From positions 3,456,001 through 3,520,000 of the forward strand of contig OZ220696.1 in NCBI GenBank assembly GCA_965116495.1: 64,000 nucleotides of DNA, written 5' to 3'. Position numbers and translations under genes: made by a program. This DNA is from Gammaproteobacteria bacterium (GTDB lineage Bacteria > Pseudomonadota > Gammaproteobacteria > Eutrophobiales > Eutrophobiaceae). Below are positions 1 through 25,331 of this stretch, one piece after another. Under the pieces are notes generated by a model. The model saw nothing but the letters and a program-made list of their open reading frames with translations. It was not told where the DNA came from and did not search any database. Within the stretch, counting starts at the first letter, position 1, and the number at the start of each line of letters is the position of its first letter.

Positions 1-437
1 GGAATATCGTCAACCTTGACCATACCGATAAAACGGCCGGGTTCGGTGAAGTTGTATTCAACATTGAATGAGCCCGTTCTCCTCAACTCTGAGGGGAGGT
101 AATAGACGGTATTCCGTTCTATATCAGTTTCACTGCCCAGGTCGTCTAATGTTGCGTAATTGCCGATATCGTTGACATCTTCAATGATACGGAAATCTAT
201 CGCCATATCCCGTAATTGATTATCGATGTAGTCCAGGACAATAATGGCGCTGCCCACGTTGGGTATGTCCTCGCAGAACTCTTCACTCTGGGTTTGCTCA
301 GGTTGGAAACCGGTAAAATGCATGAGATAAGGACCTGCCTTCAGCACGCACATATCATCCTCGATAGCCACGCCGCCGTGTGCCAGCACGGTCTGGGAGA
401 GAAAACTGCAGCAGAAAATAATCAGTAACAGGCGCAT
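1..437 (-). CDS. pmoD: PmoD/AmoD-family periplasmic copper protein (runs off the window's left edge; missing from the ORF track)
   Basis: Manual translation from ATG at 437: MRLLLIIFCCSFLSQTVLAHGGVAIEDDMCVLKAGPYLMHFTGFQPEQTQSEEFCEDIPNVGSAIIVLD... Signal peptide, HGG start and C..MHFTGxQP..EFCEDIP motif; lies directly downstream of xmoB. Confidence 0.85.
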   Translation of the reverse strand, partial: MRLLLIIFCCSFLSQTVLAHGGVAIEDDMCVLKAGPYLMHFTGFQPEQTQSEEFCEDIPNVGSAIIVLDYIDNQLRDMAIDFRIIEDVNDIGNYATLDDLGSETDIERNTVYYLPSELRRTGSFNVEYNFTEPGRFIGMVKVDDI

Positions 438-453
438 TGTATCTCGAAACTCA

Positions 454-504
454 CCTTGCCCGCCTGCCTGTTAATCGATCCGGATAACAGGCAGACGGTC
501 AAGG
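454..504. terminator. Long imperfect hairpin between xmoB and xmoD (terminator or RNA-stability element)
   Basis: CCTTGCCCGCCTGCCTGTTA ... TAACAGGCAGACGGTCAAGG arms; no clear U-tract. Confidence 0.5.
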
Positions 505-518
505 ATAACAGGGTTTGT

Positions 519-1748
519 TCAAATGGCAGTGAACGTCGGAATTAACGGACCGCCGAATGTCTGCTTATGGCGTTTACCGTTTTCATCATAGAAAAACAGC
601 ATGCCGCCGAAGCGGCTGTCCGGATCGTATATCAGCAACGCGAGGCGTTCCGTCTCCCAGGCGGCATCAGTTGCAACGATATTCAGGGTCCTTGTCTCAC
701 CCGGCTGTATGGGCGTGTCGCTGTCGACTTCCAGTCCGTTCAGGGCGATCAGGTCCTGGGGATACGGACCGACATCCGGGGCAACATCCGCGTTCAACCA
801 GCGGATAGATGCCGTCGCGAATTCACCCAGCCTTACCGGGCTGGTGGCCCCGTTGGTCACATTGACAGTCATCCTGACGCTGCGGCCGGGAATATCATAA
901 TGGGCTTCCTGCAATTCGACCTCAACCACATCCTCGTCGACAGGTAACGGGTTCAGCTCCATCAGGCCCGCCTGCAGGGGAACGGTGATCGGGAATTTAT
1001 CGATGGTGCTGAAGTAACCGTAGAATATTAACGCCAGCGTGAGAATTCCCAGTCCCATTCCTACTTTTCTATCCATGGGCGTAATCAGTTCATCTTCCCG
1101 CCCCTGGCGCAACAGGATATTCCTGCCGGCCAACAACGGTCTGCGCAGCCACCATACCAGCCAGAACGCGGCGAGGAGCGCCCATAATATGTGCCAGTTG
1201 CGTACCCTGCTCCAACCCCAGGTCTCAAGATCCACCGTTTCGCCTGTCAAGGTGGTCACGGGGTTCGTGAAGTCGGCAGCGTCGCCTGTTATCTCGACCC
1301 AGTTGCCCGGGCCGGCATTCGGTCCACCATCTTTTATATTGAGCATGGGATGGAGATGGTGCATGCCGGGACGGCGCGCCTTCATCACAATTTTATACTC
1401 GTAGTCCCGGCCGAGTTCGTAACTGGCGGAGCGCACCATCGGTTTGCCGTTTACCCAGACACCTTTTCGGACAAACACCGGACCGGGGACGTATACGTGC
1501 ATGAAAGCAACGTCGGGTTTGGCGATGGCTTCCGGCCAGCCGGTATGCAGGTGAAATTTACCCGACAGGACCACTTCCTCATTGACAGCCACCTTATCCG
1601 TGGACCATTTCGTATCGTACCATTGGACGCTGAGCATGCGCAGGAATGGTTCCTGGGAGCGTTCACCGTGGGCGTTCACCAGTGATGCAGGCGCAATCGA
1701 CAGCAGGATTAATGAAATAATACCCAGGTTTGTAATTTTACGTCTCAT
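519..1748 (-). CDS. pmoB: Copper membrane monooxygenase subunit B (PmoB/AmoB family)
   Basis: Signal peptide, then mature N-terminus HGERSQEPFLRM; HLHPM (CuB His pair); two central TM helices; C-terminal DPDSRFGGMLFFYD. Confidence 0.97.
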   Translation of the reverse strand: MRRKITNLGIISLILLSIAPASLVNAHGERSQEPFLRMLSVQWYDTKWSTDKVAVNEEVVLSGKFHLHTGWPEAIAKPDVAFMHVYVPGPVFVRKGVWVNGKPMVRSASYELGRDYEYKIVMKARRPGMHHLHPMLNIKDGGPNAGPGNWVEITGDAADFTNPVTTLTGETVDLETWGWSRVRNWHILWALLAAFWLVWWLRRPLLAGRNILLRQGREDELITPMDRKVGMGLGILTLALIFYGYFSTIDKFPITVPLQAGLMELNPLPVDEDVVEVELQEAHYDIPGRSVRMTVNVTNGATSPVRLGEFATASIRWLNADVAPDVGPYPQDLIALNGLEVDSDTPIQPGETRTLNIVATDAAWETERLALLIYDPDSRFGGMLFFYDENGKRHKQTFGGPLIPTFTAI

Positions 1749-1818
1749 TTTATCTTCCTCGTATTTTCATCAACTCAGTTTATTTTTACACTTGTTATTC
1801 AGGTCGCGGCAGGGTGAA

Positions 1819-2565
1819 TCAAACCCTGCCTTTAATGAACTTGACCGAAGCGACAAGTTTTGCAAACTGGTTGAAGACAAAATAAACGAGAATGCAGGCA
1901 AAGGCGCAGAAAAAGGCCGACACCGGTGTCACGTCCTGGCCGAACGTTCGCAGTGTTCCTTTCTCTATTATTCGAATATATTCCGGCGTACCCGTCCGGA
2001 TATATTCAAACCCCTGCACATCAGCAATCGACATCAGGACACCGTGATAATCGACGGGCAAGTGGAACGCGCCCAGCATATACCACTGGGATGGATAAAA
2101 CAGGATGCCCCATGACCAGGCTCCCAGTACGGCAGTCAGCACGTAGCTGTTGGTAAACATCAGGACCAGATCGAGAATGATGGCGCTGGGGAGCAATGTA
2201 CCGGGCCAGACAAAATTCAACGGATAGTACACCCAGCCGGCGAAGTTGTTGACCCTGTCAATCCACTGGCCCAGCAACAGGCACACCACCATCAGGGTGG
2301 CGCCAAAGGGGACACGGCAATGCTGCCACAGGATATACTGGCCCACAACGGGAAAGACAAGGGTGGACAGCGGAACGACGAATAACCACCAGCGGCGGTC
2401 CTTCCAGTCAGTCCAGAAAGTCCAGTCACCGACCGATAACATCTGGTGCAGGTGGTGGATGCCGGTCAGCAGGGTTAAGAAAATAAAAACGAGGATATAG
2501 TCAAATGCTCGGTGTACTCGATAAGCTTCTGCATAGGAATCAACGCCAGGCGCCACTGTTCTCAT
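1819..2565 (-). CDS. pmoA: Copper membrane monooxygenase subunit A (PmoA/AmoA family), divergent
   Basis: GDWTFWTDWKDRRWW and YIRTGTPEYIRIIEKGTLRTFG motifs; multiple TM helices; GGGGGAG RBS. Confidence 0.97.
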   Translation of the reverse strand: MRTVAPGVDSYAEAYRVHRAFDYILVFIFLTLLTGIHHLHQMLSVGDWTFWTDWKDRRWWLFVVPLSTLVFPVVGQYILWQHCRVPFGATLMVVCLLLGQWIDRVNNFAGWVYYPLNFVWPGTLLPSAIILDLVLMFTNSYVLTAVLGAWSWGILFYPSQWYMLGAFHLPVDYHGVLMSIADVQGFEYIRTGTPEYIRIIEKGTLRTFGQDVTPVSAFFCAFACILVYFVFNQFAKLVASVKFIKGRV

Positions 2566-2617
2566 AGCTACTCCCCCTTCGTCAAAAAATCAGCCATAGT
2601 TTACTTCTTTGTTTACG

Positions 2618-2657
2618 AAAAAAAAACCGCCGGCGTGTAACCTAAGCCGGCGGTTTC
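2618..2657 (-). terminator. Rho-independent terminator/attenuator after xmoC
   Basis: AAACCGCCGGC...GCCGGCGGTTT stem followed on the minus strand by a run of about 9 T. Confidence 0.8.
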
Positions 2658-2670
2658 TCACACAGCTACT

Positions 2671-3495
2671 TCAGTCCACCATATCGTGGTGATGCGGCAT
2701 GGGCTCATTCGTTATTTCCTTAGCTTCGAAATTCGTAAGCTGGGTTATACGATACATGAGTTGCAGCATCAAGCCACCCAGGGCAAGACCGGTCCAGGAC
2801 AGAGTCACAAACCCCCAGTGCAACGGGGCGCTGAACAACTCTTCCATAAACCAGAATGTGTGGCCCCATTCATTCAGGCCGACATTCGGCAGAATGAGAA
2901 AGGGTCCGACAACCGCAATGGTATGAGGTAATGAAATACCCTCTGCGAACTGCGGCAGCCTGGTTCTGGCATAGAGCCACGAGCCTACACCCAGGATGAT
3001 ATATACAGGGAAGCTCAAGTAGAACAGAATGATATGGCTGGGCGTGAAATCGGAATCCCGAATCACGGTCTGGTGCCATGCACCGTCCTGCTCCGCGAAG
3101 TAACTGGCAGCCCAATATACAGCATAGGTGTAACAGGCCAGCCACACCAGCAGCTTGAAGTGGCGACGGATCTCTTCCATCGGCTCCAGTTGGTCAAGGT
3201 GGCGATCCCTGGTTTTCCAGAGATAGCCCCAAATGCCAAAAGCAGCTATCGCGCCAACGGCAACTTCCGCATAGAACAGACTCATCCAGTAAGCCTGGAA
3301 ATCCATAGAGAAAGAGTCCAGACCTTTAGTCCATGCGAAGACCTGCTCATAGATTCTGACCGCGACATACATCAAAGTGATGAATGCCACACCAAAAAGC
3401 CAGTGAGCGCCGTTGATGATACCTTTAAAGCTGGTGAGGATCGGCTTTGGCTGATCTGCCTGATATTGAGCAACCGCTTCTGTAGTTGCTGACAT
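2671..3495 (-). CDS. pmoC: Copper membrane monooxygenase subunit C (PmoC/AmoC family)
   Basis: EQDGAWHQTVIRDSDFTPSH (D/H/H CuC ligands) and PNVGLNEWGHTFWFMEELFSAPLH (N/H/H CuD ligands). Start set at ATG 3495 (MSATTE), preceded by a GGAGGA RBS. Confidence 0.97.
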   Translation of the reverse strand: MSATTEAVAQYQADQPKPILTSFKGIINGAHWLFGVAFITLMYVAVRIYEQVFAWTKGLDSFSMDFQAYWMSLFYAEVAVGAIAAFGIWGYLWKTRDRHLDQLEPMEEIRRHFKLLVWLACYTYAVYWAASYFAEQDGAWHQTVIRDSDFTPSHIILFYLSFPVYIILGVGSWLYARTRLPQFAEGISLPHTIAVVGPFLILPNVGLNEWGHTFWFMEELFSAPLHWGFVTLSWTGLALGGLMLQLMYRITQLTNFEAKEITNEPMPHHHDMVD

Positions 3496-3659
3496 AAGAT
3501 ATCCTCCTAACTTAAGGTTAAACAACAATTTGTCGACAAATCATCGTCCTTATCCGAGGCCAGCGGTGCAAAAATACAATCGCCCCCCCGGCGCATAATT
3601 TCCAGAGTTTCAGCCGGTTAAGACTGATTTGGATAACTATGGATAACGACGATTAACAA

Positions 3660-3689
3660 AGTATAGTGTAACGGGTTTGAGAGAGTCAA
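3660..3689 (-). promoter_or_regulatory. Sigma70-type promoter of the xmoCABD operon
   Basis: Minus strand TTGACT-N18-TATACT, about 165 nt upstream of the xmoC start. Confidence 0.6.
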
Positions 3690-3787
3690 GTATTTTTTGC
3701 TATTTTTTTGCCGGTTTTTCCATAACTCCGCAGTTTATTGAACTTATACAGCCGAATCAATGAGTTAATGGGACATAGTGGGGAAAA

Positions 3788-4981
3788 CTACCGATAAACA
3801 ACGCGGTAAACCATGCCGGTATAATCGTCCGAGATGTAAATTTCTCCGCCGATGCCTTGCGCCACGTCGACAGGCCGGCCTATGACGTCCTCATCGATTT
3901 CGAAACCGCTGGCGAATTTGCGTTCCAGTATGCCGCCATCTTCCCGGAAATGCAGGGATACGACTTCGTAGCCCTGGCGTTCGCTCCTGTTCCATGAGCC
4001 GTGCAGCGCCACTAACAGCGCCTGCCGGTAATTTTCCGGTAGTTTGCTGTTACGCAGGAAAGCCATCCCAAGCGGCGCCGTATGTGCGGCAAAGCCGTGG
4101 ACCGGCGCAATACTCCCCCGTATTTCGGCTGTCCTGTTCCCGCCCAAATCAGGATCGGGAACCCTGTCCCCGTTGGCATACGGCCAGCCGTAAAAACCGC
4201 CCCGCTCAAGCAGATTGAGTTCGCACGGTGGATAGTCATCGCCCAGGAGATCACGGCCGTTATCCACGCCGTAAAGTAACCCGGTATCCGGTCGCCAGTC
4301 GAAACCGACCGTATTTCTCAGTCCGGATGCGAAGATTTCACTTCCGGATCCATCCGGGTTGAAGCGTAAAATCGCGGCCCGGCGCGGGTCGTTTTCGATG
4401 CAGACGTTGCAACTTGAACCGACGGACACGTAAATCAGTCCATCCGGACCGATCCTGACGCTGCGGCTCCAGTGATTGCCTCCCCGCGGCAATCCGCTCA
4501 CAATCTGCTCATACTGCCCGGACGTTGAGCGGTTGTCACTGTCAAACCTGATCCTGCCGAGGGCGTCGGTTTCGGCAATAAACAACCAGCCATCGTGAAT
4601 ATCCAGACCGTGGGGGCGGTCGAGGTTCGAGACGAGGTCGATTTGGCCGTCGCTTTTCCCGTCACCGCCGTCATCCCGCTGCAACAGGACAACCCTGCCG
4701 GAGGCCGGTAAACTGACCAGTACATCGCCGTTGTTCGTAACCTCGAGCATGCGCGCGCCGGGCAGTTCTTCTGCAAAGACGTTAATATGGAAACCCTGCG
4801 GCAATACAATCCTGTCGGCCAGCAGTTGATCATCCGGAGAATTTATGCCGGCAGGATTGAACGGCGCGTTTGTAGCAAACCGCTCCGGCAGGAACAGCCA
4901 GAACAGGAGCGCGGCCACACCCAGGAAAAATAAATCTCTTAAAAGCCGTTGCAGTCCCCGCATAAAATCTCTAATGTGCAT
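3788..4981 (-). CDS. PQQ-dependent sugar/L-sorbosone dehydrogenase family beta-propeller protein
   Basis: N-terminal TM segment; GPDGLIYVSVGSSCNVC, ASGLRNTVGFDW, HTAPLG and GRPVDVA motifs. Confidence 0.85.
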   Translation of the reverse strand: MHIRDFMRGLQRLLRDLFFLGVAALLFWLFLPERFATNAPFNPAGINSPDDQLLADRIVLPQGFHINVFAEELPGARMLEVTNNGDVLVSLPASGRVVLLQRDDGGDGKSDGQIDLVSNLDRPHGLDIHDGWLFIAETDALGRIRFDSDNRSTSGQYEQIVSGLPRGGNHWSRSVRIGPDGLIYVSVGSSCNVCIENDPRRAAILRFNPDGSGSEIFASGLRNTVGFDWRPDTGLLYGVDNGRDLLGDDYPPCELNLLERGGFYGWPYANGDRVPDPDLGGNRTAEIRGSIAPVHGFAAHTAPLGMAFLRNSKLPENYRQALLVALHGSWNRSERQGYEVVSLHFREDGGILERKFASGFEIDEDVIGRPVDVAQGIGGEIYISDDYTGMVYRVVYR

Positions 4982-5105
4982 TGATAGGCCGGAGACAGAA
5001 TGTGTCTGTCCCCGCAGGTGTTATACAGCAAAGGCTGCCTAAAATATATTATTCATAATATTACTTTATTATCCTTAATGGTACACTTATAATGTTTGAT
5101 ATCTG

Positions 5106-5193
5106 GGGTCAGAGTAAAAATTGACGGAGACAGCGGGGGACGGACTTAAAATCAGTCCCCGGCATGCCGGGGACTGTGTTTTTACTCTGACCC
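5106..5193. repeat. Nested palindromic intergenic element (GGGG(T/A)CAG family)
   Basis: GGGTCAGAGTAAAAA / TTTTTACTCTGACCC outer inverted repeat enclosing the perfect 24-bp palindrome CAGTCCCCGGCATGCCGGGGACTG (5153-5176). Confidence 0.75.
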
Positions 5194-5235
5194 TGACTTT
5201 TTATTGATAATTTTGTTGCACACAGGAGACAATTC

Positions 5236-5358
5236 ATGGGCGGTATGATTCATTTTCTTGAACTGCTACGCACACCCGTTGGCGCCGCGGTCGGCTTGGT
5301 TGTGGTTGTGATGTTTGTGTTTTATATCAAGTGGCTGCTGGCCGAACCGGAGGACTAA
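5236..5358 (+). CDS. Small single-TM protein (40 aa)
   Basis: AGGAG RBS; MGGMIHFLELLRTPVGAAVGLVVVVMFVFYIKWLLAEPED*; below the ORF-track length cutoff. Confidence 0.6.
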   Translation: MGGMIHFLELLRTPVGAAVGLVVVVMFVFYIKWLLAEPED

Positions 5359-5429
5359 TAAAGCAGTTGCGGTTTATTGTCGACGCCATGAAGGATACCT
5401 GCCCGGTTAAGAGCAGGCAGTTCGGAGAT

Positions 5430-5963
5430 TTACCAGGTATCGTCTATACGCTCTTTTATCATGTTGATAAAAGCTGAAACGCCCGCATCTGCCGGGTCCT
5501 TCGGAATGATAAGTGCGGTGTTCGTATCGATATATACGAATGCATAATCGGGAAGTTCATCAACGCGCATGATTTTATCCCATCCTATCGTCGAGCGCCC
5601 GCCCGGTGAAAATTCAACCAGGGCAGATTCCTTGACATGCATTTTGTGAGTGCCGTACATATCTTTTTTTTCCAGCTCCGAATAGTGTTTTCGCACTGAT
5701 TTGCGGTAAACATCCTTCAGGGTCCGAGGTACGATCAGGCTCCATAACAGTGCGGTGGCAACCATCCCGGCCACAAAGAACGGTTCTCCTCCCCGGTGCC
5801 AGGCATAGCCGGCAAGCAGGACAATACCCACCGGCCACAGGATTCGGTGGCGTTCCATTGCTTTTTTCAGTTTTGGCACATATTGCGCGTGGTGTTCATT
5901 AAAGGCAGTAAGCGATCTTTCCGTGATTTCAAACTCTATTTCTGCCAGGATCGGTTCTTTCAT
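5430..5963 (-). CDS. YcxB-like membrane protein
   Basis: Two TM helices plus C-terminal W.kI..v.e...y.fvy.....ALIIPK pattern. Confidence 0.7.
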   Translation of the reverse strand: MKEPILAEIEFEITERSLTAFNEHHAQYVPKLKKAMERHRILWPVGIVLLAGYAWHRGGEPFFVAGMVATALLWSLIVPRTLKDVYRKSVRKHYSELEKKDMYGTHKMHVKESALVEFSPGGRSTIGWDKIMRVDELPDYAFVYIDTNTALIIPKDPADAGVSAFINMIKERIDDTW

Positions 5964-5983
5964 TTTGGTTTAACGGTATTGTT

Positions 5984-7570
5984 TCATAATCCCAGATTTT
6001 TAAGATGCAGGTCTATATCATCCTGGCTGAACCCAATTCTCTCTGCAACCAGTTCGGCGTGGCTGAACTCTGAAATTCCGTCCGTCAGGATAAACGTCGG
6101 ATTGTCGTTCTCCAGGTAGAATTTATAAAAGACCCCGGCGTCCCGTTGTTCCAGCATCAGGGCAAGGTCGTGATTATGGGAGACAAGGACCGTCGCATTT
6201 CCCAACCTGATGAACCCGTTCAGTATCATTAACGCGATTTTGGTTTCTTCCCGGTGTGAAGTGCCTTCCGACAACTCATCCAGGATCACCAGGCTTTTTC
6301 TGGTTGTTTTGAAAAATATTTCCCTGGTGCGTCGTAGTTCGGTGCCGAACCGGCCTTCTTCCTCCAGTATGGAACCTGCATCAGGGGCCTGGTAACAAAT
6401 TCTGTCTGCAATACTGAGCGTTCCGGAGCGCGCAGGGATGACACTCCCTGATTGCGCCATGATTTGTGTCAGCGCCAGTGTTTTACAGAGCGCAGTTTTG
6501 CCGCCGCTGTTCGGTCCGCTGATGAACACGAGCGACTTCTCCCGGTTATCGAAATCATTCGCAATATATTCCTCGTTATCGAAACCCAGCACCGGGTGAG
6601 TTACCTTGCCCAGGCTGATTGTGCACCACTCTGTGTCGCGGATATCAGGGATACAGGTTTTGTTCCTGTTGGCCGCAAAGTAACGGTAGAAACTCAATAA
6701 TTCATCCAGTTGTCCAAGTCCCTGTACTGCATGTTCAACTTCACCTGCTGCTACCAATGCTTTTCTGAACGGGTAAATCACGTGATCCCGGTCAAGTGAG
6801 CCGACCACCGGCAGGTAAAGGAAAATCGTTATAAACATGAAAAACAGCGTCACGCTTGCCGACATGGGGTTTAACTGGAGATAGATGGGGATGCTGTAAA
6901 ACAGCAACGCCAGCGAAAGGATGATACTGAGCTTGAACGGGGAGGACTTGAAACGAAAGGAAAACAGGCCTCTCTGACTCCTGGGCATGATACGCCCCGG
7001 CAGCAAGTACACGGGAGCAGTCAGCAGTTCATAACTGGTCGTCGATTTGAAGTCTTTCAGCCTGGATATTGCTCCTGTCAGATATGAAGACCTGGTCTCG
7101 GGCAATTCGTCGATTTTTTCAATTACGGATGGCAGAAAACGGATCCCGTAACGAAAACTGGCATAGCCGTAGCCCTGAAATTCCACCCGTGTTCCCGGGT
7201 CGGAGAGCAAGCCTATGAACCTGCCGAACAGCAGGCGGTGGAAGTCATTCTGGTACCTGCTTGCGGCTTCAAATACACGTTCAAGTCCTGAGCGCAATTG
7301 CTCATTTTCGATTATCTCACGGGAGGCAGCCTGCTTGTCCTCGATATGGCCCAGATCGGTGCTTGGGTTTCCCAGGCTGTGGCTCAAGGTAATCCGGCCG
7401 GCCAGGGTTTTAGTGTCGTCCATAAGACGATTCAATTTGTCCAGCTCGATCAGGTCATAGGTCTTGCCGTCTATGTACATCGTATCGGGCTCTTCCGAAT
7501 AGAGATAGTCGCGCGCACTGACCTGCTTTTGTGTCAAGGCATATCTTGCTTTGAGCAATATGGATTTCAT
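5984..7570 (-). CDS. MutS-related ATPase (domain V only) with TM segments
   Basis: GPNSGGKT Walker A, ILDELSEGTS Walker B, SHNHDL; hydrophobic hairpin near aa 215-260; no mismatch-binding domain I. Confidence 0.8.
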   Translation of the reverse strand: MKSILLKARYALTQKQVSARDYLYSEEPDTMYIDGKTYDLIELDKLNRLMDDTKTLAGRITLSHSLGNPSTDLGHIEDKQAASREIIENEQLRSGLERVFEAASRYQNDFHRLLFGRFIGLLSDPGTRVEFQGYGYASFRYGIRFLPSVIEKIDELPETRSSYLTGAISRLKDFKSTTSYELLTAPVYLLPGRIMPRSQRGLFSFRFKSSPFKLSIILSLALLFYSIPIYLQLNPMSASVTLFFMFITIFLYLPVVGSLDRDHVIYPFRKALVAAGEVEHAVQGLGQLDELLSFYRYFAANRNKTCIPDIRDTEWCTISLGKVTHPVLGFDNEEYIANDFDNREKSLVFISGPNSGGKTALCKTLALTQIMAQSGSVIPARSGTLSIADRICYQAPDAGSILEEEGRFGTELRRTREIFFKTTRKSLVILDELSEGTSHREETKIALMILNGFIRLGNATVLVSHNHDLALMLEQRDAGVFYKFYLENDNPTFILTDGISEFSHAELVAERIGFSQDDIDLHLKNLGL

Positions 7571-7608
7571 GAAAGAACGTGACTTTTAATCGTTAGCGGG
7601 ATATGCAG

Positions 7609-8184
7609 TCAGTATTTATCCGGTTTGCCGGTTGTTCTGGTTTTTTTCCACTCCTTGTAGGCTTCCGCTGCCAGGTTATAGTCCAGGTAACCCAGAGTTA
7701 ACCGGTACAGCTCCGCATCTCCTGCGCCAGGTTGTAAGGGCGCCTTCGTACACTCCAAGGAAACGGAGCGTTTCGTATTTCGCTGGAGGACCCATTTATC
7801 ATCGGCATCGTTAATTATTGCTTCACCTTTTGTGTAATATTTCTGCATTAACTCATCCGCCAGGCCATCAACCAGGGTGTCGCAGGCAGAGCGGGTCAGG
7901 TGCGCGCCCGTCATGGCGTTGATCTGGTAGATCCTGTGAGACCCCGGCGTCACGGTATAATAATATTTTTCAAATCGAGTGTCCGGAGAGGGCGGTGTGC
8001 CGGCATCAATACTCTTGAGTTCGGATAAAAAAGTTTCGCCGAGCCCTTCAGGCCGTTCGCCAAATGAGAACCCGAACGCGCCGCTCAGCAAATCGTCACC
8101 CGGCCCGGACTGAGTGCAGGATTGCAGACTCAGGATGGACCACAAAATTAAAAAACACAGGTTGATTTTGTTCGGCTTCAGCAC
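7609..8184 (-). CDS. Putative lipoprotein, function unknown
   Basis: Probable GTG start at 8184, downstream of the yqaA stop; lipobox-like LSLQSC. Confidence 0.5.
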   Translation of the reverse strand: MLKPNKINLCFLILWSILSLQSCTQSGPGDDLLSGAFGFSFGERPEGLGETFLSELKSIDAGTPPSPDTRFEKYYYTVTPGSHRIYQINAMTGAHLTRSACDTLVDGLADELMQKYYTKGEAIINDADDKWVLQRNTKRSVSLECTKAPLQPGAGDAELYRLTLGYLDYNLAAEAYKEWKKTRTTGKPDKY

Positions 8185-8189
8185 TTTTT

Positions 8190-8600
8190 CTATACAAGGA
8201 AATATATCAATACGGAGTAACGTAACGCTTTTCCCGTGATAATGAAAGCCGTTGCCCGCAGCACAGGGAGCCTTAACCAGCCTGCGGCGAAACAGAATGC
8301 GTCGCCGATAACCGGCAGCCAACTGAACAACAGGGTAAAAATTCCCCATTTCTGCAGCAGGCCGGTTGCCCTGGGGTTATGTAGTTTTTCGGCATACCGG
8401 ACTGATAATCCGTGTGCCGGGAAATAGCCGATAATATAAGTGGTCAATGCCCCCAGCGTGTTCCCGATCGTGGCAACAGTCCCCAGCAAATAGTATGAAA
8501 TACCTGAATTTAACACCAGGTATGCCAATACGACCTCAGATCCACCGGGGGCCAGGGTGGATGAGATAAAAGCACTGATGAATAATCCCCAAAGCTCCAT
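8190..8600 (-). CDS. YqaA/DedA (SNARE-associated) membrane protein
   Basis: LFISAFISSTLAPGGSE, GNTLGA, SWLPVIGD and GKALRY motifs. Confidence 0.85.
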   Translation of the reverse strand: MELWGLFISAFISSTLAPGGSEVVLAYLVLNSGISYYLLGTVATIGNTLGALTTYIIGYFPAHGLSVRYAEKLHNPRATGLLQKWGIFTLLFSWLPVIGDAFCFAAGWLRLPVLRATAFIITGKALRYSVLIYFLV

Positions 8601-8621
8601 GTGTGCTGGCCGGAATTGAAA

Positions 8622-9476
8622 TTATTGGACACCGGTAAAAAATGAAATAATCCGGCTATTTCTTTCCGGCCATACAGTATGCCTTCTTTCACCTTCACAA
8701 TAGACAGTCCTGACGCCGTTTTCGCATTCCAGGAATGAGGCGCAACCCGTTCCCAGTGTCCGGACATTATCAGAGCATTGGTTGCACTGTTTCCACCACT
8801 GCATGGTTTCGACACCGTATCCGGGAAATACCTTGTCATTTTTGCTGTGCATGACTAAAACCGGCAATGGCGCCGGGCAGGCAAAAGCTTTTAAATCCTC
8901 TCCGCGGAAGCCCGCGGCGCTGGGCGCAATAGCGGCCGGACTGAGCGGGGATTCCTCCAGCAACGCCAGCGCAGTGGAAATAGTTCCGCCGTTGGAATGG
9001 CCGGTCAGAAATACCCGGTCCAGGTCGATACACCACTGCGTTGCGACCAGTGCAGGTAGCGTGCCCAGTTCCAGGATCCATTCTTTTGCCAGCGGTCTGT
9101 TCAGGGCGGGTAGCTTGCGCGGACGGTTATCGGCGTAGACAACGATGAAGCCCTGGCGGGTGCCCTCAGTTGTAAGCCCGGTAAACCATTCCGTTCCGAG
9201 TCCGCTCCGGTCGCCGGGGGAAAAGACCATCATCAGCGGGTGCGCGATACGGTTGTCGTAATTCAATGGCGTACGGACAGAGTAACGGATACCGCGTTCA
9301 GTCAGCAGTTCATCTGTTTTACCGGTCGCCCCGGCCCTGGTGTCCGGGGCGCAGGCATGCGTTACTTCCTGCGGGTAGGATGTGTTCGACAACTCACTTT
9401 CCGGAAGCGCACAACCTGAAAGGAGAATGGCTGAGAGAAAAATACCGTTCCGAATTTTGCCAATGATACCGTTCAT
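8622..9476 (-). CDS. Exported PHB-depolymerase-like (LpqC/LpqP-type) esterase lipoprotein
   Basis: Lipobox LSGC; GHSNGG nucleophile elbow; PVLVMHSKND. Confidence 0.7.
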   Translation of the reverse strand: MNGIIGKIRNGIFLSAILLSGCALPESELSNTSYPQEVTHACAPDTRAGATGKTDELLTERGIRYSVRTPLNYDNRIAHPLMMVFSPGDRSGLGTEWFTGLTTEGTRQGFIVVYADNRPRKLPALNRPLAKEWILELGTLPALVATQWCIDLDRVFLTGHSNGGTISTALALLEESPLSPAAIAPSAAGFRGEDLKAFACPAPLPVLVMHSKNDKVFPGYGVETMQWWKQCNQCSDNVRTLGTGCASFLECENGVRTVYCEGERRHTVWPERNSRIISFFTGVQ

Positions 9477-9563
9477 CAACAGGTCCCCGCATTGCAAGGA
9501 TGACCAACGATATCGTAAACTATGCTATAAAACATAAGTACTGCGTCACTGCGAGAGATCAGC

Positions 9564-10340
9564 TTGATAACCTTAATCGCCATATTATTTCCGTTAATTT
9601 TATTGGTTATCATCTATCGTTTTTTTTGGTTGATTAGGGAGCCGTTGTTCAAGCTTGCGGAAATCGCCCGGATTGACGCAAGCCGCCTTGAGCACTATCA
9701 AAAGGATATCGGTTTCAAGTACAAAAGTATTTACCTGGTTGTCAGCATCATATCCGGAGTTGTTGTCGGGTTAATCCAGTATGGCCTGTTCAGTCTTTCC
9801 GTCAGTTTCCGGTCCGGATACCTGTTCGAATCCCGCATGTCGGATTCGCTCGGATATTCCCTGATGACCGGCCTGCTATTGGGGTTCCCCCTGGCAGTCA
9901 TTGTCTGCACCGTTTTTATGAGAATGCTGGGCAAGGAACGCTTTGCCGCCTTGCTGAACATGAAAGACGGTGGCATAGCCGTACAAAAGTGGTTCTCGTG
10001 GATTGGCAAAATCAGCATTTCAACCTGTATTTTTGTATTTGTACTGAACCTCATAGCGTACACTACCCATCTTGTCGTAACTGAGGACCAGATCAGCTAT
10101 CGGCGCTGGCGCAGTTTCCCGGCCACAAGTACCGGCATCGACCAGATTCATCACTTGCGCTCATTTTCAATCATTGACATAACCGACTCGGGAAGGATGG
10201 AACGGGAATTCCTGCAAATCGTATTCAAGGACGGGGAGGTACTGAATACCGTTTACCTGGTCAGCGCGGCCAGGACCCGGGAGTTGATTGCGGTTCTGAG
10301 AAGTGTCTACGGCTATGACCTGGAAATAAAGAAAGTGTGA
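9564..10340 (+). CDS. Hypothetical membrane protein
   Basis: 258-aa ORF with about 4 TM helices that fills the intergenic gap. Confidence 0.6.
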   Translation: MITLIAILFPLILLVIIYRFFWLIREPLFKLAEIARIDASRLEHYQKDIGFKYKSIYLVVSIISGVVVGLIQYGLFSLSVSFRSGYLFESRMSDSLGYSLMTGLLLGFPLAVIVCTVFMRMLGKERFAALLNMKDGGIAVQKWFSWIGKISISTCIFVFVLNLIAYTTHLVVTEDQISYRRWRSFPATSTGIDQIHHLRSFSIIDITDSGRMEREFLQIVFKDGEVLNTVYLVSAARTRELIAVLRSVYGYDLEIKKV

Positions 10341-10351
10341 TCACGGGCGTC

Positions 10352-10816
10352 TCACTCGCCGGGGTCTATACCCAGGCGATATTTGTACACCATCACCCCA
10401 CCATACCACCCGCCGATACAAAGACATATCAACCCTGCGCCTGAGATGAGGGCCGGCAGTAACACGGGCGATGCCAGAACCAGATTGTCGGCCAGCCGGG
10501 TATAACCGCTCACCAGGTAAAGGATCCATGCCGTACCGACGAAACCGGCATGTTTGTAAAATGCCAGCATCAACCTGTCTTCATCCGGAAGTTGCATAAA
10601 ATCGTAGACTCCGACGATCATTGCGGGTATGGCAAAAACAACCCCTGTCCATATCAGCAAGCTTGATACGGCCCACCAGTCCAGTCCAAAAAAAACAACC
10701 CCGGTACCAGTCAGCGCGGCCAGGTCCGCCGGATGGGACAGGCCCCAGCAGGCAATTGGGAAGTGAACCAGCGCCGGATGAAAAGGATGCCTCCCGGCGA
10801 CCTCTCTGTCCGGCAT
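10352..10816 (-). CDS. DUF2231-family membrane protein
   Basis: HPFHPALVHFPIA N-terminal motif; GGWYGGVMVY C-terminus. Confidence 0.8.
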   Translation of the reverse strand: MPDREVAGRHPFHPALVHFPIACWGLSHPADLAALTGTGVVFFGLDWWAVSSLLIWTGVVFAIPAMIVGVYDFMQLPDEDRLMLAFYKHAGFVGTAWILYLVSGYTRLADNLVLASPVLLPALISGAGLICLCIGGWYGGVMVYKYRLGIDPGE

Positions 10817-10834
10817 TGAAATCCTGGCCGACGT

Positions 10835-11182
10835 CTAAGACGGACCTGAAAAGAGGGCGATCAGCAGGAGAAGAACTCCGCCTACTCCCGCCATGGCATG
10901 GACAACGACTGCAGGTCTCGGCGCCAGGTCCTTGTCCAGGTGGATGGATGCCAGGTAAAACCCGCCTACGGCTGCGCCAAGCAGGACAATCAAGGCCGTC
11001 ATTAATACTCCCCCACCTATGGTCATGGTTGCAATGCCTGCCAATACCAGGCCGGTGGCGCCCAACAGCATGTGCAGAAGCGATAGCGCCCAGGGCGCCA
11101 TTTTGCCCTTGAAAATCATCAGCGCCATGATTAATCCGCCTACCGCGGCTACCAAGAAGATACCAATTGCATACTCAAGCAT
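10835..11182 (-). CDS. Small 4-TM membrane protein with two intramembrane His
   Basis: Highly hydrophobic; two-fold internal repeat (AAVGG...LLHMLLG / AAVGG...VVHAMAG). Confidence 0.65.
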   Translation of the reverse strand: MLEYAIGIFLVAAVGGLIMALMIFKGKMAPWALSLLHMLLGATGLVLAGIATMTIGGGVLMTALIVLLGAAVGGFYLASIHLDKDLAPRPAVVVHAMAGVGGVLLLLIALFSGPS

Positions 11183-11376
11183 TGCCTGCCCCCTTTGATT
11201 GAAGATGACTTTAAAATTAACCCCGCCATCTTACCAGATGTATGTCCACTGGTGAAATGGCAAAGCGATAGTACAAGTTATTGCCGAAATTTCCGTTTGT
11301 CAAGTTTATCTTTATCTTTGTTTACCATAATTCATCTTTATTTATCTGATTTTAGTTCAAACTGTTTTTCCAGGCA

Positions 11377-11943
11377 TTACTGGCCCGTAGCTTGGAATGA
11401 TTTTGGAGGTATAAAAAATACCTGTGCCAGCCAGGTTGTTCCAAATGCAAATGCCAGAACAATAAGCATATATCCGAGTTGCTGCTGCTCGCCTAACAGG
11501 TAGTTGTTACACAGGCGATCAGGTGAGACCAGGTAGATCCAGCCAAGCCTGAACAACATCGCCAGAAATTCAATTTTTACCACGCCCCTGGCTACCGGGT
11601 GCAGGACTTGCCAGCTCAGCGCCAATGGTATGCCGACTAGCAGGGGAAGAGACAAATATTTTATACATGCAGTGAATTCGTCGCTCAACGATGCGTCCAG
11701 CCACCTGGGTATCATCCAGAATGCAAGGGTAAAACAGGCTAACAGAATTGCCGGGATGCCGATCACGCTGAGCACCCCGGCCATGCGCGCTTTGAGCAGG
11801 CTGCCTGCAAAGATACCGATAGTAATGAGCAGCGGGATTTCAACCAATACGTGATTCAGCAAAGAGGTCTCAAGATATGGTCCTGCAGGGCCAACGGCAA
11901 TGAGCAGCCACAACGCAAATGCTGTTACGATACCCCTGTACAT
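11377..11943 (-). CDS. Membrane protein of the sNOR cluster (orf1; CtaG-like assembly factor)
   Basis: HVLVEIPLL, FWMIPRWLD and RLCNNYL...QQQLG patterns; follows the SCO gene. Confidence 0.65.
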   Translation of the reverse strand: MYRGIVTAFALWLLIAVGPAGPYLETSLLNHVLVEIPLLITIGIFAGSLLKARMAGVLSVIGIPAILLACFTLAFWMIPRWLDASLSDEFTACIKYLSLPLLVGIPLALSWQVLHPVARGVVKIEFLAMLFRLGWIYLVSPDRLCNNYLLGEQQQLGYMLIVLAFAFGTTWLAQVFFIPPKSFQATGQ

Positions 11944-11946
11944 GGT

Positions 11947-12555
11947 TCAGATGAGCGAAGTCAGGTGTTCCATTAATTCCGCGGTGTTGTCGATACCGTA
12001 AATACCAACCACCCGATGGTTCCTGACCAGGTATATCGCAGCATTGTGCACGTATCCCAGGTCCGGTTCCGGTAAAACAATGACACCGAGACTGTCAAGC
12101 AGTTCATCCAGGGATCGCTTATCGGCAACCCTGAGGGCGGACCAGTTGCCGGGTTCGGAAGAAAACCTTTTGAGGTAGGCGGATAATTCTTCGGGACCGT
12201 CATTTTCATGGTCGAAAGAGATGCTTAAAAACTGGATATCTTCAGCGTGTCCGCTTGATGCCAGCAGCGTTTGCAACCGGCTGAACCGGTAGCCCATCAC
12301 CATGCATGCGGTAGTGCAGCGGGAAAAGATAAAGTCTACTACCAGAACTGGTTTTTCAAAGTCGTGGAGGTTGGAAAATACACCTGTCTCACGTTGGACG
12401 TGAATATCCGGCAGGGGTGTCTGTTGGTCCATAACTGCGCGCCGGCGCGCAGACTCGGCTGTCCAGACAGTCCAGCCGTCTGTAGCCCAGCCGAGTGTCG
12501 CCAGGCCGCCTGTAGTAACGCTGAGGGTCAGTACCAGGCTTAGCCACGGTTTCAC
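11947..12555 (-). CDS. senC: SCO1/SenC copper chaperone
   Basis: DFIFSRCTTAC (CxxxC), SISFD..D and distal His (YVHN). Confidence 0.9.
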   Translation of the reverse strand: MKPWLSLVLTLSVTTGGLATLGWATDGWTVWTAESARRRAVMDQQTPLPDIHVQRETGVFSNLHDFEKPVLVVDFIFSRCTTACMVMGYRFSRLQTLLASSGHAEDIQFLSISFDHENDGPEELSAYLKRFSSEPGNWSALRVADKRSLDELLDSLGVIVLPEPDLGYVHNAAIYLVRNHRVVGIYGIDNTAELMEHLTSLI

Positions 12556-13991
12556 GCTGTGCGGGCGTTCCCCATGTGGGTGAGAAATCGTAAGGCGAAT
12601 ACCAGCGCAGACAAGGTGATGCCTGTTGCCAGCACCGAGGCCACTTCACTGTAACCCACCCATTCGGGCAGGTGGACCGCCCAGCGCCGCGCCACGCTGG
12701 CCTGGCCGCCGGCAAGAAAGTTCATGCAAAGACCGGTGCCGGCCACCAGGAATATCCAGAATGCCAGTTTGTCGAGCAGTTTTGGCGCGCCGTTCTGGGC
12801 GATGTAATACATGAAGCCGAACAGCATCGCCACCAGGCCGACAATCAGGTACATGTGGAAATGGCCGGGCACCCACAAGGTGTTGTGCATGACCTGGTTC
12901 GCCGCGATCGTCCCATCGATAACCGCGGGAACCACGCCTACCGCCCAACCGAAAACGGATATAAATAACAGCCCGGATACCATATCCCACTGCAGGTTTG
13001 ACCGATGTACAATTGCCAAAGTGTTATATGCGGTAACCAGCAGAATAGGCAGTCCGCTCAGGTAAGACAGCACCTGTCCCATCAGCAGCATCCAGGTCGG
13101 CATCGCGAAATCCATCAGAAGATGATGCGGGTAGACGAACATAACCATGAAGGTTGAAGCCGTCCAGGCCGCGAGGAATACCTTGTTCACTTTCCAGGGT
13201 CGTCCCGTGTATTCCGGCAGGATCTCGTAAACCGCGATAACGGCCTGGTAGATGGTGGCATTGATAAAGACGTGGCCGAAGAAAAAAATGAGATTTTTTG
13301 TCAGCAGCGCATTAACGGCAAATGCCGGATAAAACAGGTTCACGAGTATCATGGTCAGTACCACGGCGCCGCCCAGGATACCGGCAATATTGATAATTAC
13401 CACCATGGTTGACGCAACCACGCAGGCCGGTGGAAAGTCGGTGCTGTTGCCGAATAGCTGGGGCCAGCCGAGACCGCGCGCCAGGCTGCCGTATTTCGAG
13501 ATGATGGCGCGCCCTGCGTCCAGGTAGAGCAGCAAAAAGCCGACACCTATCAGGAGGAGTCCGATAAGGAAGGACGCCGCGCCGCTTGTACCCCAGACAC
13601 CCATCCCATGGGAAGGCAATGGAAACAGGAATGTCCAGGCGCCACCATATCCTCCCAGGAATATTCCTCCCAGTATCAACACAACGCCGAGCAGGAAGAA
13701 AACCAGGTTAGCCCACAGTATTCCGGTAGTGAGGTTGACGTGCCGGCGCAGGAAATACCACAAGACGGCACTGGCAGCGAGGCCGGAAATGCCGACCATA
13801 CCGGCGCCGTGCGCGGTCATGACCTGGTAAAAAATATGTGGCGGAATACCCAGCCATTGTGCCTGGCCCACGTGCATGAGCAGTCCCAGCAGCATCATTA
13901 ATACGTAAACAAGCGCACCGACCCCGAGATAAGTAATAATGGCGTAGCGTGCAGATTTATTCAGAGGTGGTATTGAAGATTCATTTGCCAT
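12552..13991 (-). CDS. norY: Heme-copper oxidase subunit I, sNOR-type nitric oxide reductase candidate
   Basis: All six His ligands present (TAHG, FGH, PHH, GHFH), but the helix VI motif reads FFFGHVFIN, with Asn where O2 reductases have Tyr. Confidence 0.8.
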   Translation of the reverse strand: MANESSIPPLNKSARYAIITYLGVGALVYVLMMLLGLLMHVGQAQWLGIPPHIFYQVMTAHGAGMVGISGLAASAVLWYFLRRHVNLTTGILWANLVFFLLGVVLILGGIFLGGYGGAWTFLFPLPSHGMGVWGTSGAASFLIGLLLIGVGFLLLYLDAGRAIISKYGSLARGLGWPQLFGNSTDFPPACVVASTMVVIINIAGILGGAVVLTMILVNLFYPAFAVNALLTKNLIFFFGHVFINATIYQAVIAVYEILPEYTGRPWKVNKVFLAAWTASTFMVMFVYPHHLLMDFAMPTWMLLMGQVLSYLSGLPILLVTAYNTLAIVHRSNLQWDMVSGLLFISVFGWAVGVVPAVIDGTIAANQVMHNTLWVPGHFHMYLIVGLVAMLFGFMYYIAQNGAPKLLDKLAFWIFLVAGTGLCMNFLAGGQASVARRWAVHLPEWVGYSEVASVLATGITLSALVFALRFLTHMGNARTA

Positions 13992-14016
13992 GACATAACT
14001 CCTAAATCAGGGTTCA

Positions 14017-14568
14017 TCACTTGACGTTAAATGGAATGATCATCGCGTGATGGGACAGACCGCAATATTCCATACACATTAACCGGTACTGGCCCGGTTC
14101 GCTGAACGTGAATTTCAGTTTGTTCTCATACCCCGGCATTGCCTGGGTCTGGGCCAGTAAACGCAGTTCGCCGTCGTAGATACCCATCCCGTGGTTGACG
14201 TCTTCAGTCGTGACATTGAATATGACGGTAGTACCGGCTTCCACCTCATTTTGACTCAGTTCCCAGAACCATTGTTTGCCTACCGCGTCAATTTCGACGG
14301 CGCCGACAACAACCTCACCGCGCGTCGCCGCGTACGGTAGTACCTGGGTCGTAGCAATGAAGATGATTACCCCGGCTGCGAGCATCAGCCAGAACAACTT
14401 CGCCCTGAAACTCAAGGCGCGGGCCTGCGCCTCTTCGTATTCCGGGATTGTTTTTGACGAGTTGACAGTGACGTAAATAAAGGCAGCCGCAACAACGGCC
14501 ATGAGTGAGAGCGATACAAGCCAGACAGTCTCCTGGATCATCAGTATTCCCCTTTGGGTGATGGACAC
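14017..14568 (-). CDS. norS: Heme-copper oxidase subunit II with CuA site (start may be 14541)
   Basis: Two TM helices, GKQWFW, DVNHG and CMEYCGLSHHAM CuA motif. Confidence 0.85.
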   Translation of the reverse strand: MSITQRGILMIQETVWLVSLSLMAVVAAAFIYVTVNSSKTIPEYEEAQARALSFRAKLFWLMLAAGVIIFIATTQVLPYAATRGEVVVGAVEIDAVGKQWFWELSQNEVEAGTTVIFNVTTEDVNHGMGIYDGELRLLAQTQAMPGYENKLKFTFSEPGQYRLMCMEYCGLSHHAMIIPFNVK

Positions 14569-14634
14569 GACCTAATACATATATTTCACGTACATGATTT
14601 CACTTGAGTTAGCCACCTGTCAAGCTTCATCAGT

Positions 14635-16074
<1,440 letters not shown>

Positions 16075-16095
16075 AGTCATCCTCACTTGACTGGT

Positions 16096-16123
16096 GTCAT
16101 GCCGGCGCAAGCCGGTATCCAGT
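16096..16123. repeat. REP/RPE-like palindrome (GTCAT..CCGGCGCAAGCCGG.ATCCAG family)
   Basis: Related copies at 32543-32597, 60523-60560 and 63650-63674. Confidence 0.7.
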
Positions 16124-16135
16124 CAATACACATTT

Positions 16136-22832: not shown

Positions 22833-22872
22833 CTTGCTTCTTTCCAAGGTTACGCCAGCAGTTCGCCAGTCA

Positions 22873-25319: not shown

Positions 25320-25331
25320 GTACTGCTTTAC

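Follow-up and report, generated by a model that had tools for sequence, protein, structure and literature searches.

The window analysed here is a stretch of 64,000 nucleotides on contig OZ220696.1 of a Gammaproteobacteria bacterium (assembly GCA_965116495.1, positions 3,456,001 to 3,520,000 of the forward strand; genome G000), and its left end carries xmoCABD, an operon for a divergent copper membrane monooxygenase (CuMMO). A preliminary description of the window had reported an intact operon, and the open reading frames (ORFs) agree: on the minus strand, we identified xmoC at 2671-3495 (274 aa, ATG start with AGGAGG), xmoA at 1819-2565 (248 aa), xmoB at 519-1748 (409 aa) and the 5' part of xmoD (pmoD) at 1-437, which runs past base 1 and is complete in the genome at 204 aa (G000:3455823-3456437). 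XmoC, XmoA and XmoB all score above the NCBIfam CuMMO cut-offs, XmoD matches PmoD 6CPD (E = 6e-15), and the C-A-B-D order in one operon assigns the system to the CuMMO superfamily. The operon, and xmoC likewise, is present once in the genome, and its genes are under purifying selection (dN/dS of 0.03-0.09 for xmoA, xmoB and xmoC against four relatives). Outside the window, xmoD is followed by genes for a multicopper oxidase with a membrane anchor and for a cupredoxin-like protein whose N-terminus bears an EG-x-CG repeat (L002:17306-19751, minus strand); this pair also stands beside unrelated CuMMOs at two other loci, L106 and L214 (50-60% identity).

Upstream of xmoC, a sigma70-type promoter (TTGACT-18-TATACT) lies at 3660-3689 on the minus strand. 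Both of its hexamers are invariant in the five genomes that carry the operon (5/5 carriers) and the spacer between them is variable, in line with the earlier claim of an own promoter; however, it is the best of five promoter-like matches, a number not above chance (shuffle mean 4.2). Directly downstream of the -10 hexamer, a tandem TTATCCA-n2-TTATCCA at 3635-3652 (minus strand), also invariant in 5/5 carriers, is a possible regulator site; the repeats resemble DnaA boxes. Between xmoC and xmoA, at 2618-2656 (minus strand), there is an intrinsic-terminator-like hairpin with a U-run (-23.7 kcal/mol, z = -2.66), of which the G+C core of the stem is invariant in 5/5 carriers and the loop is variable. 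In each of the four RNA runs compared, out of 18 listed and picked by the presence of xmo (2 of the 4 labelled sponge metagenome; runs X2 and X3 resemble one data set), contigs that are mostly 94-99% identical span parts of xmoC, xmoA and xmoB; such contigs extend to 3632-3653, which fits the promoter position, although start sites cannot be shown by contigs. These contigs are consistent with xmo transcription in close relatives, short of proof.

All ligands of CuB (H27/H131/H133 in XmoB), CuC (D137/H141/H154 in XmoC) and CuD (N208/H212/H226 in XmoC) are intact, as previously noted, and the departures of XmoA from Methylococcus PmoA at GDWTFW, GQWIDRVNNFAGW and YPSQWY are real. Relative to particulate methane monooxygenase (pMMO), XmoA carries D49T, E100Q and N160Q. 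Among 150 other XmoA rows, position 49 is Asp in 138 and Thr in none, and Q160 occurs once, whereas Q100 is commoner (23/150). The combination of D49T and E100Q parallels D49S and E100Q in HmoA, a subunit of the hydrocarbon monooxygenase (HMO) of Mycolicibacterium chubuense NBB4. XmoC has A/L/S/W at four positions where the pMMO pattern, seen in Methylococcus and in 62 of 90 comparison rows, is T/E/V/Y, and it matches at none of them (0/4). The XmoA T49/Q100 and XmoC A/L/S/W residues would favour a non-methane enzyme, yet they are lineage marks rather than proven substrate determinants. The Gln at the PmoB H48 position, to which the preliminary description drew attention, is present in XmoB but ordinary, as AmoB 9LEG has it too.

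The best match of XmoA is its own 50-member cluster at 98% identity, followed by the next at 57% (best 120 of 158 homologues), and among 79 metagenome loci one XmoA is 98% identical and the remainder at most 58%. Identity to Binataceae is 53.5%, to Methylomicrobium/Methylomonas 52%, to Nitrosococcus 51%, to PxmA 50%, to Cycloclasticus 48-49% and to NBB4 HmoA 43%; bit scores are 303 for gamma-pMMO vs. 226-239 for the beta-type ammonia monooxygenase (AMO). Ahead of one of the trees, 18 rows that were fragmentary, degenerate or redundant had been removed. In a tree of 56 XmoA rows, XmoA forms a long branch (0.49) outside the pMMO/Nitrosococcus clade (98/95), in a loose grouping with Binataceae-type and unnamed sequences (95/90, 10-row clade), and in a tree of 39 concatenated CAB rows XmoCAB lies outside the gamma-pMMO clade (100/100). 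With 50-53% identity to named PmoA and its own long branch, XmoA does not fall within a characterised pMMO clade at high identity. It belongs neither to the actinobacterial HMO and butane monooxygenases (41-46% identity; Asp rather than Ala at HmoC 151) nor to Pxm, given the order CAB rather than ABC, as had been stated, and 50% identity to Methylomagnum PxmA, which is in a separate clade. Thus, the earlier suggestion of a possibly new clade gains support from both trees: XmoA appears to lie outside every characterised clade among the references used, a set without named Haliea, ET-HIRO, NC10 and verrucomicrobial sequences, and its deeper position is not settled by the trees. The G063 locus was excluded from the comparison of metagenome loci and from the concatenated tree, and none of the claims depends on it. 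A further protein, P0121 (985 aa), matches XmoA in residues 671-904 and is a possible fusion of CuMMO subunits.

The operon is part of an island of 45.2 kb (G000:3425412-3470634), the right third of which is window 1-14634, the left 30.6 kb being outside the window. From the left (G000:3425.5-3456 kb), its genes encode FadL, an acylating aldehyde dehydrogenase, an HTH-MEDS regulator, a short-chain dehydrogenase/reductase (SDR) of the R-hydroxypropyl-coenzyme M (R-HPC) dehydrogenase type, as well as 2-KPCC, the 2-ketopropyl-CoM oxidoreductase/carboxylase; next, the beta, coupling, alpha and reductase components of a diiron monooxygenase, followed by epoxyalkane:coenzyme M transferase (EaCoMT), a second SDR and a CoA transferase; and finally XcbA-E for coenzyme M (CoM) synthesis, an acyl-CoA ligase, a CoA-disulfide reductase, a TRAP transporter, the cupredoxin-like protein, the multicopper oxidase and XmoD. 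The gene set for CoM-dependent epoxide carboxylase, of the Xanthobacter type, is complete: EaCoMT is 45-48% identical to the JS614/NBB4 genes, the first SDR matches R-HPC dehydrogenase (E = 1e-102), the second has its best match in PDB 4GH5, which we take to be S-HPC dehydrogenase, 2-KPCC scores 806 bits to 1MO9 (Py2 2-KPCC), and xcbA-E are all above the NCBIfam cut-offs. The alpha subunit of the monooxygenase shares 67.5% identity with the enzyme on NBB4 pMYCCH.01 and 55% with JS614 EtnC. Group 4 of the soluble diiron monooxygenases (SDIMOs) is recognised by the order beta-coupling-alpha-reductase together with an alpha subunit at least 50% identical to members (PMC11825192); since group 7 shares this order, identity decides, and it makes the island enzyme a group-4 SDIMO, that is, an alkene monooxygenase (alkene MO). 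The pMYCCH.01 copy, which we infer to be the propene enzyme of NBB4, points to the propene subgroup. Nearest relatives of XmoC and alkene MO alpha were drawn from plasmids and a sample of 400 other genomes of the class, in which alpha has a sole match, 39-42% identical. The alkene MO cluster and the xmo operon are 24 kb apart within the island. In the four RNA runs, the alkene and CoM genes are hardly covered, with pieces of 87-164 nt on aldehyde dehydrogenase, MO alpha and fadL; because the runs were picked by xmo and consist of contigs only, they allow no ranking of genes by expression. A repeat of ~320 bp (L001:19017-19337; 38 BLAST matches in the genome) separates alkene MO alpha from the reductase in G000, and this gap is missing in G014.

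Within the genus, xmoA, alkene MO alpha (94-100%), EaCoMT (89-100%), fadL and a GSDH-family gene have one and the same distribution (5 of 23 genomes), with identical gene order and flanks in the three contiguous relatives (G014, G015 and G016) and a fragmented sequence in G007. Among the matches listed, window 1-14634 and the segment from fadL to the MO reductase have nothing but short repeats in common with the five non-carriers tested (of 18). In one non-carrier, G022, the left flank stops 74 bp before boxB, which marks an empty site. The island has a G+C content of 52.7% vs. 54.7% for the whole genome; of those of its ORFs that were scanned, none was recognised as an integrase, and the sole tRNA in the 80 kb scanned lies 11 kb left of the island. 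Across 126 genomes of the order, just one other CuMMO was found, in G517; it was considered as a sixth carrier of the same clade and rejected at 44% XmoA identity. Its locus (L214, G517:C30) holds an independent CuMMO accompanied by the same copper module; G517 belongs to the same family but to another genus. No EaCoMT or alkene MO was seen near the CuMMO in the other 78 metagenome loci, most of which are short.

Synonymous divergence (dS) from G015 and G016 is 0.11-0.19 for both monooxygenases, compared to 0.58-0.68 for boxBC and 0.85 for rpoB (G015), so that xmoA/B and MO alpha/beta, with a shared low dS of 0.11-0.15, look as if they had moved together. In an RpoB tree that includes 4 of the 5 carriers (RpoB was not found in G016), carriers are not a resolved clade, and the starred sister of G000, G001, is without the island. 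Simple vertical inheritance of the island is not upheld, gain and loss being indistinguishable; we infer that homologous exchange has taken place patchily and at a fixed site, with codon bias possibly adding to the dS signal. MtkA (L052:10538-11719) is 97-99% identical in G014, G015, G016 and G022 vs. 86-93% in other congeners, hinting that serine-cycle genes are exchanged too.

The host is a gammaproteobacterium whose order comprises one family, with a genome 99.5% complete. A named locus, L013 (97% XmoA identity), bears the whole-genome shotgun prefix JAAXHV01, which is described as the placeholder genus, in family UBA4486, for a symbiont of a deep-sea sponge (PMC13200403); G000 probably belongs to UBA4486 on this account and, with close relatives in sponge RNA, likely lives in sponges. 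The genome encodes an XoxF-type dehydrogenase with a D-x-D motif (best PDB match 6DAM, E = 3e-213), moxJ, fae, mch, fhc, fch, ftfL, glyA and glycerate kinase, as well as a sga-mcl-mtkAB-hpr-ppc-like cluster, isocitrate lyase (icl) and malate synthase; XoxF, the tetrahydromethanopterin (H4MPT) pathway and a serine-cycle cluster are represented among these genes. Four further pyrroloquinoline quinone (PQQ) dehydrogenases score above cut-off. The XoxF protein (L050:2164-6522, plus strand) has 679 aa with insertions relative to 6DAM, and the genes after it encode a small periplasmic protein, MoxJ and what is likely a cytochrome; the locus adjoins two fhc gene sets. XoxF, fae/mch/fhc and the serine-cycle-like cluster together form the downstream equipment expected with a pMMO, with several serine-cycle genes below equivalog cut-offs and assigned by clustering. 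In the genome screen that the preliminary description had proposed, XoxF and serine-cycle-like genes were thus found, whereas neither hexulose-phosphate synthase of the ribulose monophosphate (RuMP) pathway nor RuBisCO (control positive) was found in the host genome. A hidden Markov model search for hydroxylamine oxidoreductase (HAO) had no positive control and was replaced by a count of haem motifs: 0 of 10,953 ORFs in the host have at least three CxxCH motifs, which argues that HAO is absent. Since 23 of the 24 family relatives have fae and xoxF, and mtkA is in every one of the 23 genomes from the genus, methylotrophy is the background onto which the island arrived. The region had been portrayed as typical of an aromatic-degrading heterotroph; that the host is not a canonical methanotroph or nitrifier stands, but its genes suggest a near-complete methylotroph and not an aromatic degrader alone.

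An ammonia monooxygenase supporting nitrification would agree with the NCBIfam bacterial AmoA/B/C models, all above cut-off, although the same names are given to Methylomonas PmoA. A bacterial AMO is expected with HAO and autotrophic carbon fixation, and there is neither HAO by haem-motif count nor RuBisCO here; XmoA is also only ~51% identical to Nitrosococcus AmoA. The ammonia reading is largely refuted already and we regard it as very improbable.

We consider it moderately probable that XmoCABD is a divergent CuMMO that oxidises C2-C4 hydrocarbon gases within an alkene/CoM island. Gene content, intact ligands, linkage, island boundaries and purifying selection are established. In favour of this reading are the linkage of the two monooxygenases and the CoM genes, the dS values that they share against G015 and G016, the matches of the downstream enzymes, the XmoA and XmoC residues that depart from pMMO, the position outside the starred gamma-pMMO clade and the Haliea precedent below. 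In the proposed mechanism, gases would pass the outer membrane, possibly through FadL; XmoD, the multicopper oxidase, the cupredoxin and SCO would supply copper to the CuMMO, which would hydroxylate ethane- to butane-sized alkanes and/or epoxidise small alkenes, and propene-type alkenes would be epoxidised by the group-4 diiron enzyme. The epoxides of either enzyme would be captured by EaCoMT, the R- and S-HPC dehydrogenases and 2-KPCC on CoM made by XcbA-E, a route predicted to yield acetoacetate or acetyl-CoA. The host's PQQ dehydrogenases in the periplasm would receive the alcohols, and the glyoxylate shunt the C2 units, allowing growth. With XoxF and C1 pathways present, methane co-oxidation would also be usable.

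Several known systems resemble this arrangement. Haliea ETY-M as well as ETY-NAG are described as growing on ethene and degrading gases of the C2-C3 range though not methane, and as having a pmo-like gene (PMC4036023), and the EaCoMT gene of ETY-M is said, as unpublished data, to be co-transcribed with the emo cluster (PMC6440738); these marine Gammaproteobacteria with a CuMMO linked to EaCoMT are a functional precedent for C2-C4 oxidation. Unlike the present island, they are described as having no detected soluble alkene MO, and their pmoA-like genes as nearer Nitrosomonas/Nitrosospira, whereas XmoA is nearer gamma-pMMO by score, a separation that goes by description only. NBB4 combines an HmoCAB CuMMO with group-4 alkene MO and CoM genes in one organism (on plasmids), shares the D49S/T and E100Q changes, and holds the alpha subunit 67.5% identical to ours on pMYCCH.01, beside a KPCC-like gene. 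However, it belongs to a different phylum, its HmoA is 41-43% identical, its HmoC has Ala at 151 where XmoC has Asp, and its hmo genes are ~445 kb from the alkene cluster, compared to 24 kb in one island here. Halieaceae PE-TB08W, the sole gammaproteobacterial group-4 alkene MO in a 2025 review (PMC11825192), has a group-4 alkene MO, Py2-type epoxide carboxylase and CoM genes (PMC11825192; PMC6440738), but it is of a different order, is known here by description only, and no pmo-like gene is reported as detected in it (PMC6440738). Of the XmoA sequences with a name in the tree, the nearest comes from Binatota (Binataceae, 53.5%; 95/90), which are described as serine-cycle methylotrophs, some from sponges (PMC8262859); they are a different phylum, and XmoA is on a separate long branch (0.49). 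The gamma-pMMO of Methylococcus and Methylomicrobium and the AMO of Nitrosococcus share the CAB order, PmoD, copper ligands and a near-identical CuD loop with the present system and are the best solved-structure matches, whereas XmoA is 50-53% identical, outside their starred clade, and without PmoA D49/E100, XmoC lacks T/E/V/Y, and the present host lacks RuMP, RuBisCO and HAO genes.

A number of observations weigh against C2-C4 oxidation as the role of the CuMMO. Co-regulation is not required, since the operon comes with a promoter of its own and is oriented towards the alkene genes; the diiron enzyme of the island already yields epoxides, so that the CuMMO is not needed for alkenes; and the five carriers are relatives with one insertion site, so that their 5/5 co-occurrence may be a single event. 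Against G014, dS is unequal (0.34 for xmoA, 0.81 for MO alpha), which indicates that the two monooxygenases have not always moved together. The concatenated CAB tree puts XmoCAB sister to gamma-pMMO (86/95, unstarred), and an approximately unbiased test does not reject a grouping of XmoA with pMMO/Nitrosococcus (p = 0.229). XmoC has Asp at the HmoC A151 site, as do 80 of 90 rows; since A151D in HmoC is reported to reduce butane activity more than ethane activity (PMC13058606), this speaks against a C4 preference, and together with a CuD loop near-identical to that of pMMO it would point to a small substrate.

The same Asp, the CuD loop and the placement near pMMO that is not rejected also count towards a new type of methane monooxygenase, whereby the island would have made a serine-cycle methylotroph a facultative methanotroph, with the CoM cluster clearing co-oxidation epoxides and also serving alkene use. 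The host holds XoxF, moxJ, the H4MPT genes, the serine-cycle-like cluster, icl and malate synthase, the copper module matches one beside a pMMO-type operon (L106), ~9% of methanotroph genomes are described with a similar etnE/CoM detoxification cluster (PMC11507031), and methane cycling has been proposed for oxic sponges (PMC9999580). The island described for Methylohalobius crimeensis, in a CuMMO-bearing genome, likewise has etnE, an SDR, a CoA transferase, CoM synthesis, an acyl-CoA synthetase, an aldehyde dehydrogenase and a MEDS regulator; unlike the present host, it is accompanied by a canonical pMMO and is reported to lack an alkene monooxygenase and a glyoxylate shunt (PMC11507031). Against the methane reading, a dedicated alkene MO is present here, XmoC has none of the four pMMO-pattern residues, xmoC is single-copy, and the C1 genes are weak evidence for methane since they are family-wide and do not track the CuMMO, several of those for the serine cycle being assigned by clustering under equivalog cut-offs. 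As all downstream modules exist and methanotrophs can carry a detoxifying CoM cluster, methane stays a serious candidate, if on balance an unlikely one. Slightly more doubtful still is the wider proposition of a new facultative methanotroph lineage in shallow-water sponges, in which serine-cycle, XoxF-using UBA4486 Gammaproteobacteria would have become able to oxidise methane by way of a 45-kb island for trace gases, its CuMMO clade being undescribed, would swap the island between species and would escape standard pmoA primers.

The remainder of the island within the window begins with the GSDH-family beta-propeller dehydrogenase (3788-4981, minus strand), which is island-restricted and found in the same 5 of 23 genomes. 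Cargo at 5430-11943 comprises a YcxB-like protein, a MutS-domain protein, a weak alpha/beta hydrolase, DUF2231 and hypothetical proteins, with no DNA match in 5/5 non-carriers save a repeat of ~70 bp. This unexplained cargo, together with the substitutions T49 (0/150 other rows) and Q160 (1/150) and reports of ketone-adapted CuMMOs (PMC11507031), could fit another small organic substrate from the surroundings of the host, for example a ketone or a volatile that is halogenated or methylated, in which case xmo and the alkene genes would be linked as shared island cargo; among the island genes, neither a dehalogenase nor a gene for acetol processing was recognised, and we hold this to be improbable. 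At the right end of the island (11947-14568, minus strand) are an SCO1/SenC copper chaperone and a divergent haem-copper oxidase (COX1 of 479 aa, COX2 of 183 aa), possibly of the high-affinity type, whose COX1 is 25% identical to the main COX1 of the host.

Beyond it, boxB-boxC (14635-17845, minus strand) is a conserved chromosomal flank outside the island. The box, hcr and hpa neighbours of the preliminary description are in part as named (boxBC and hpaDE above cut-off, the 'hcr' genes below the HcrA/B cut-offs), but they are backbone and do not form the context of the operon, for which the informative genes, alkene MO and CoM, lie just left of the window. A link of xmo to aromatic degradation was accordingly rejected, as boxBC are outside the island and in 5/5 non-carriers tested, and phenol/toluene-type SDIMO alphas (25-27% matches) occur in 20 of 22 congeners. 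At L056:8318-19402, two gene clusters for aromatic diiron monooxygenases lie side by side, toluene-type and phenol-type to judge by their gene layout, together with a likely catechol dioxygenase. Inserted beside boxC, at 17902-27722 (minus strand), is a locus for type I restriction-modification that also has YhcG and a PIN_12 protein of 1198 aa.

Each component family was already known; the novelty lies in a deep CuMMO branch that is physically coupled to a group-4 alkene MO and the CoM pathway, in a gammaproteobacterium that is methylotrophic and likely associated with sponges. We found no published description of the clade or island in the full-text literature, subscription journals and supplements aside, and in the paper that names JAAXHV01 'pmo' and 'alkene' are absent from the main text (PMC13200403). 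The substrate had been called unreadable from sequence; context narrows it to short-chain hydrocarbons or methane, while for CuMMOs in general the sequence does not yet reveal the substrate. With a pMMO-like CuD loop, HMO-like changes and two complete downstream routes (C1 and alkene/CoM), the enzyme is a sharp test case, and natural carrier species and non-carrier species with an empty site exist, permitting comparison. xmoA has 3 mismatches to each of the primers A189f and A682r, so that amplicon surveys would likely miss it. To the single exception in the 2025 review (PMC11825192), the host adds another lineage of Gammaproteobacteria, the second, that has a group-4 alkene MO. It also places alkene catabolism by way of CoM in a likely symbiont of sponges, which may be an overlooked marine sink for ethene, propene, light alkanes or methane.

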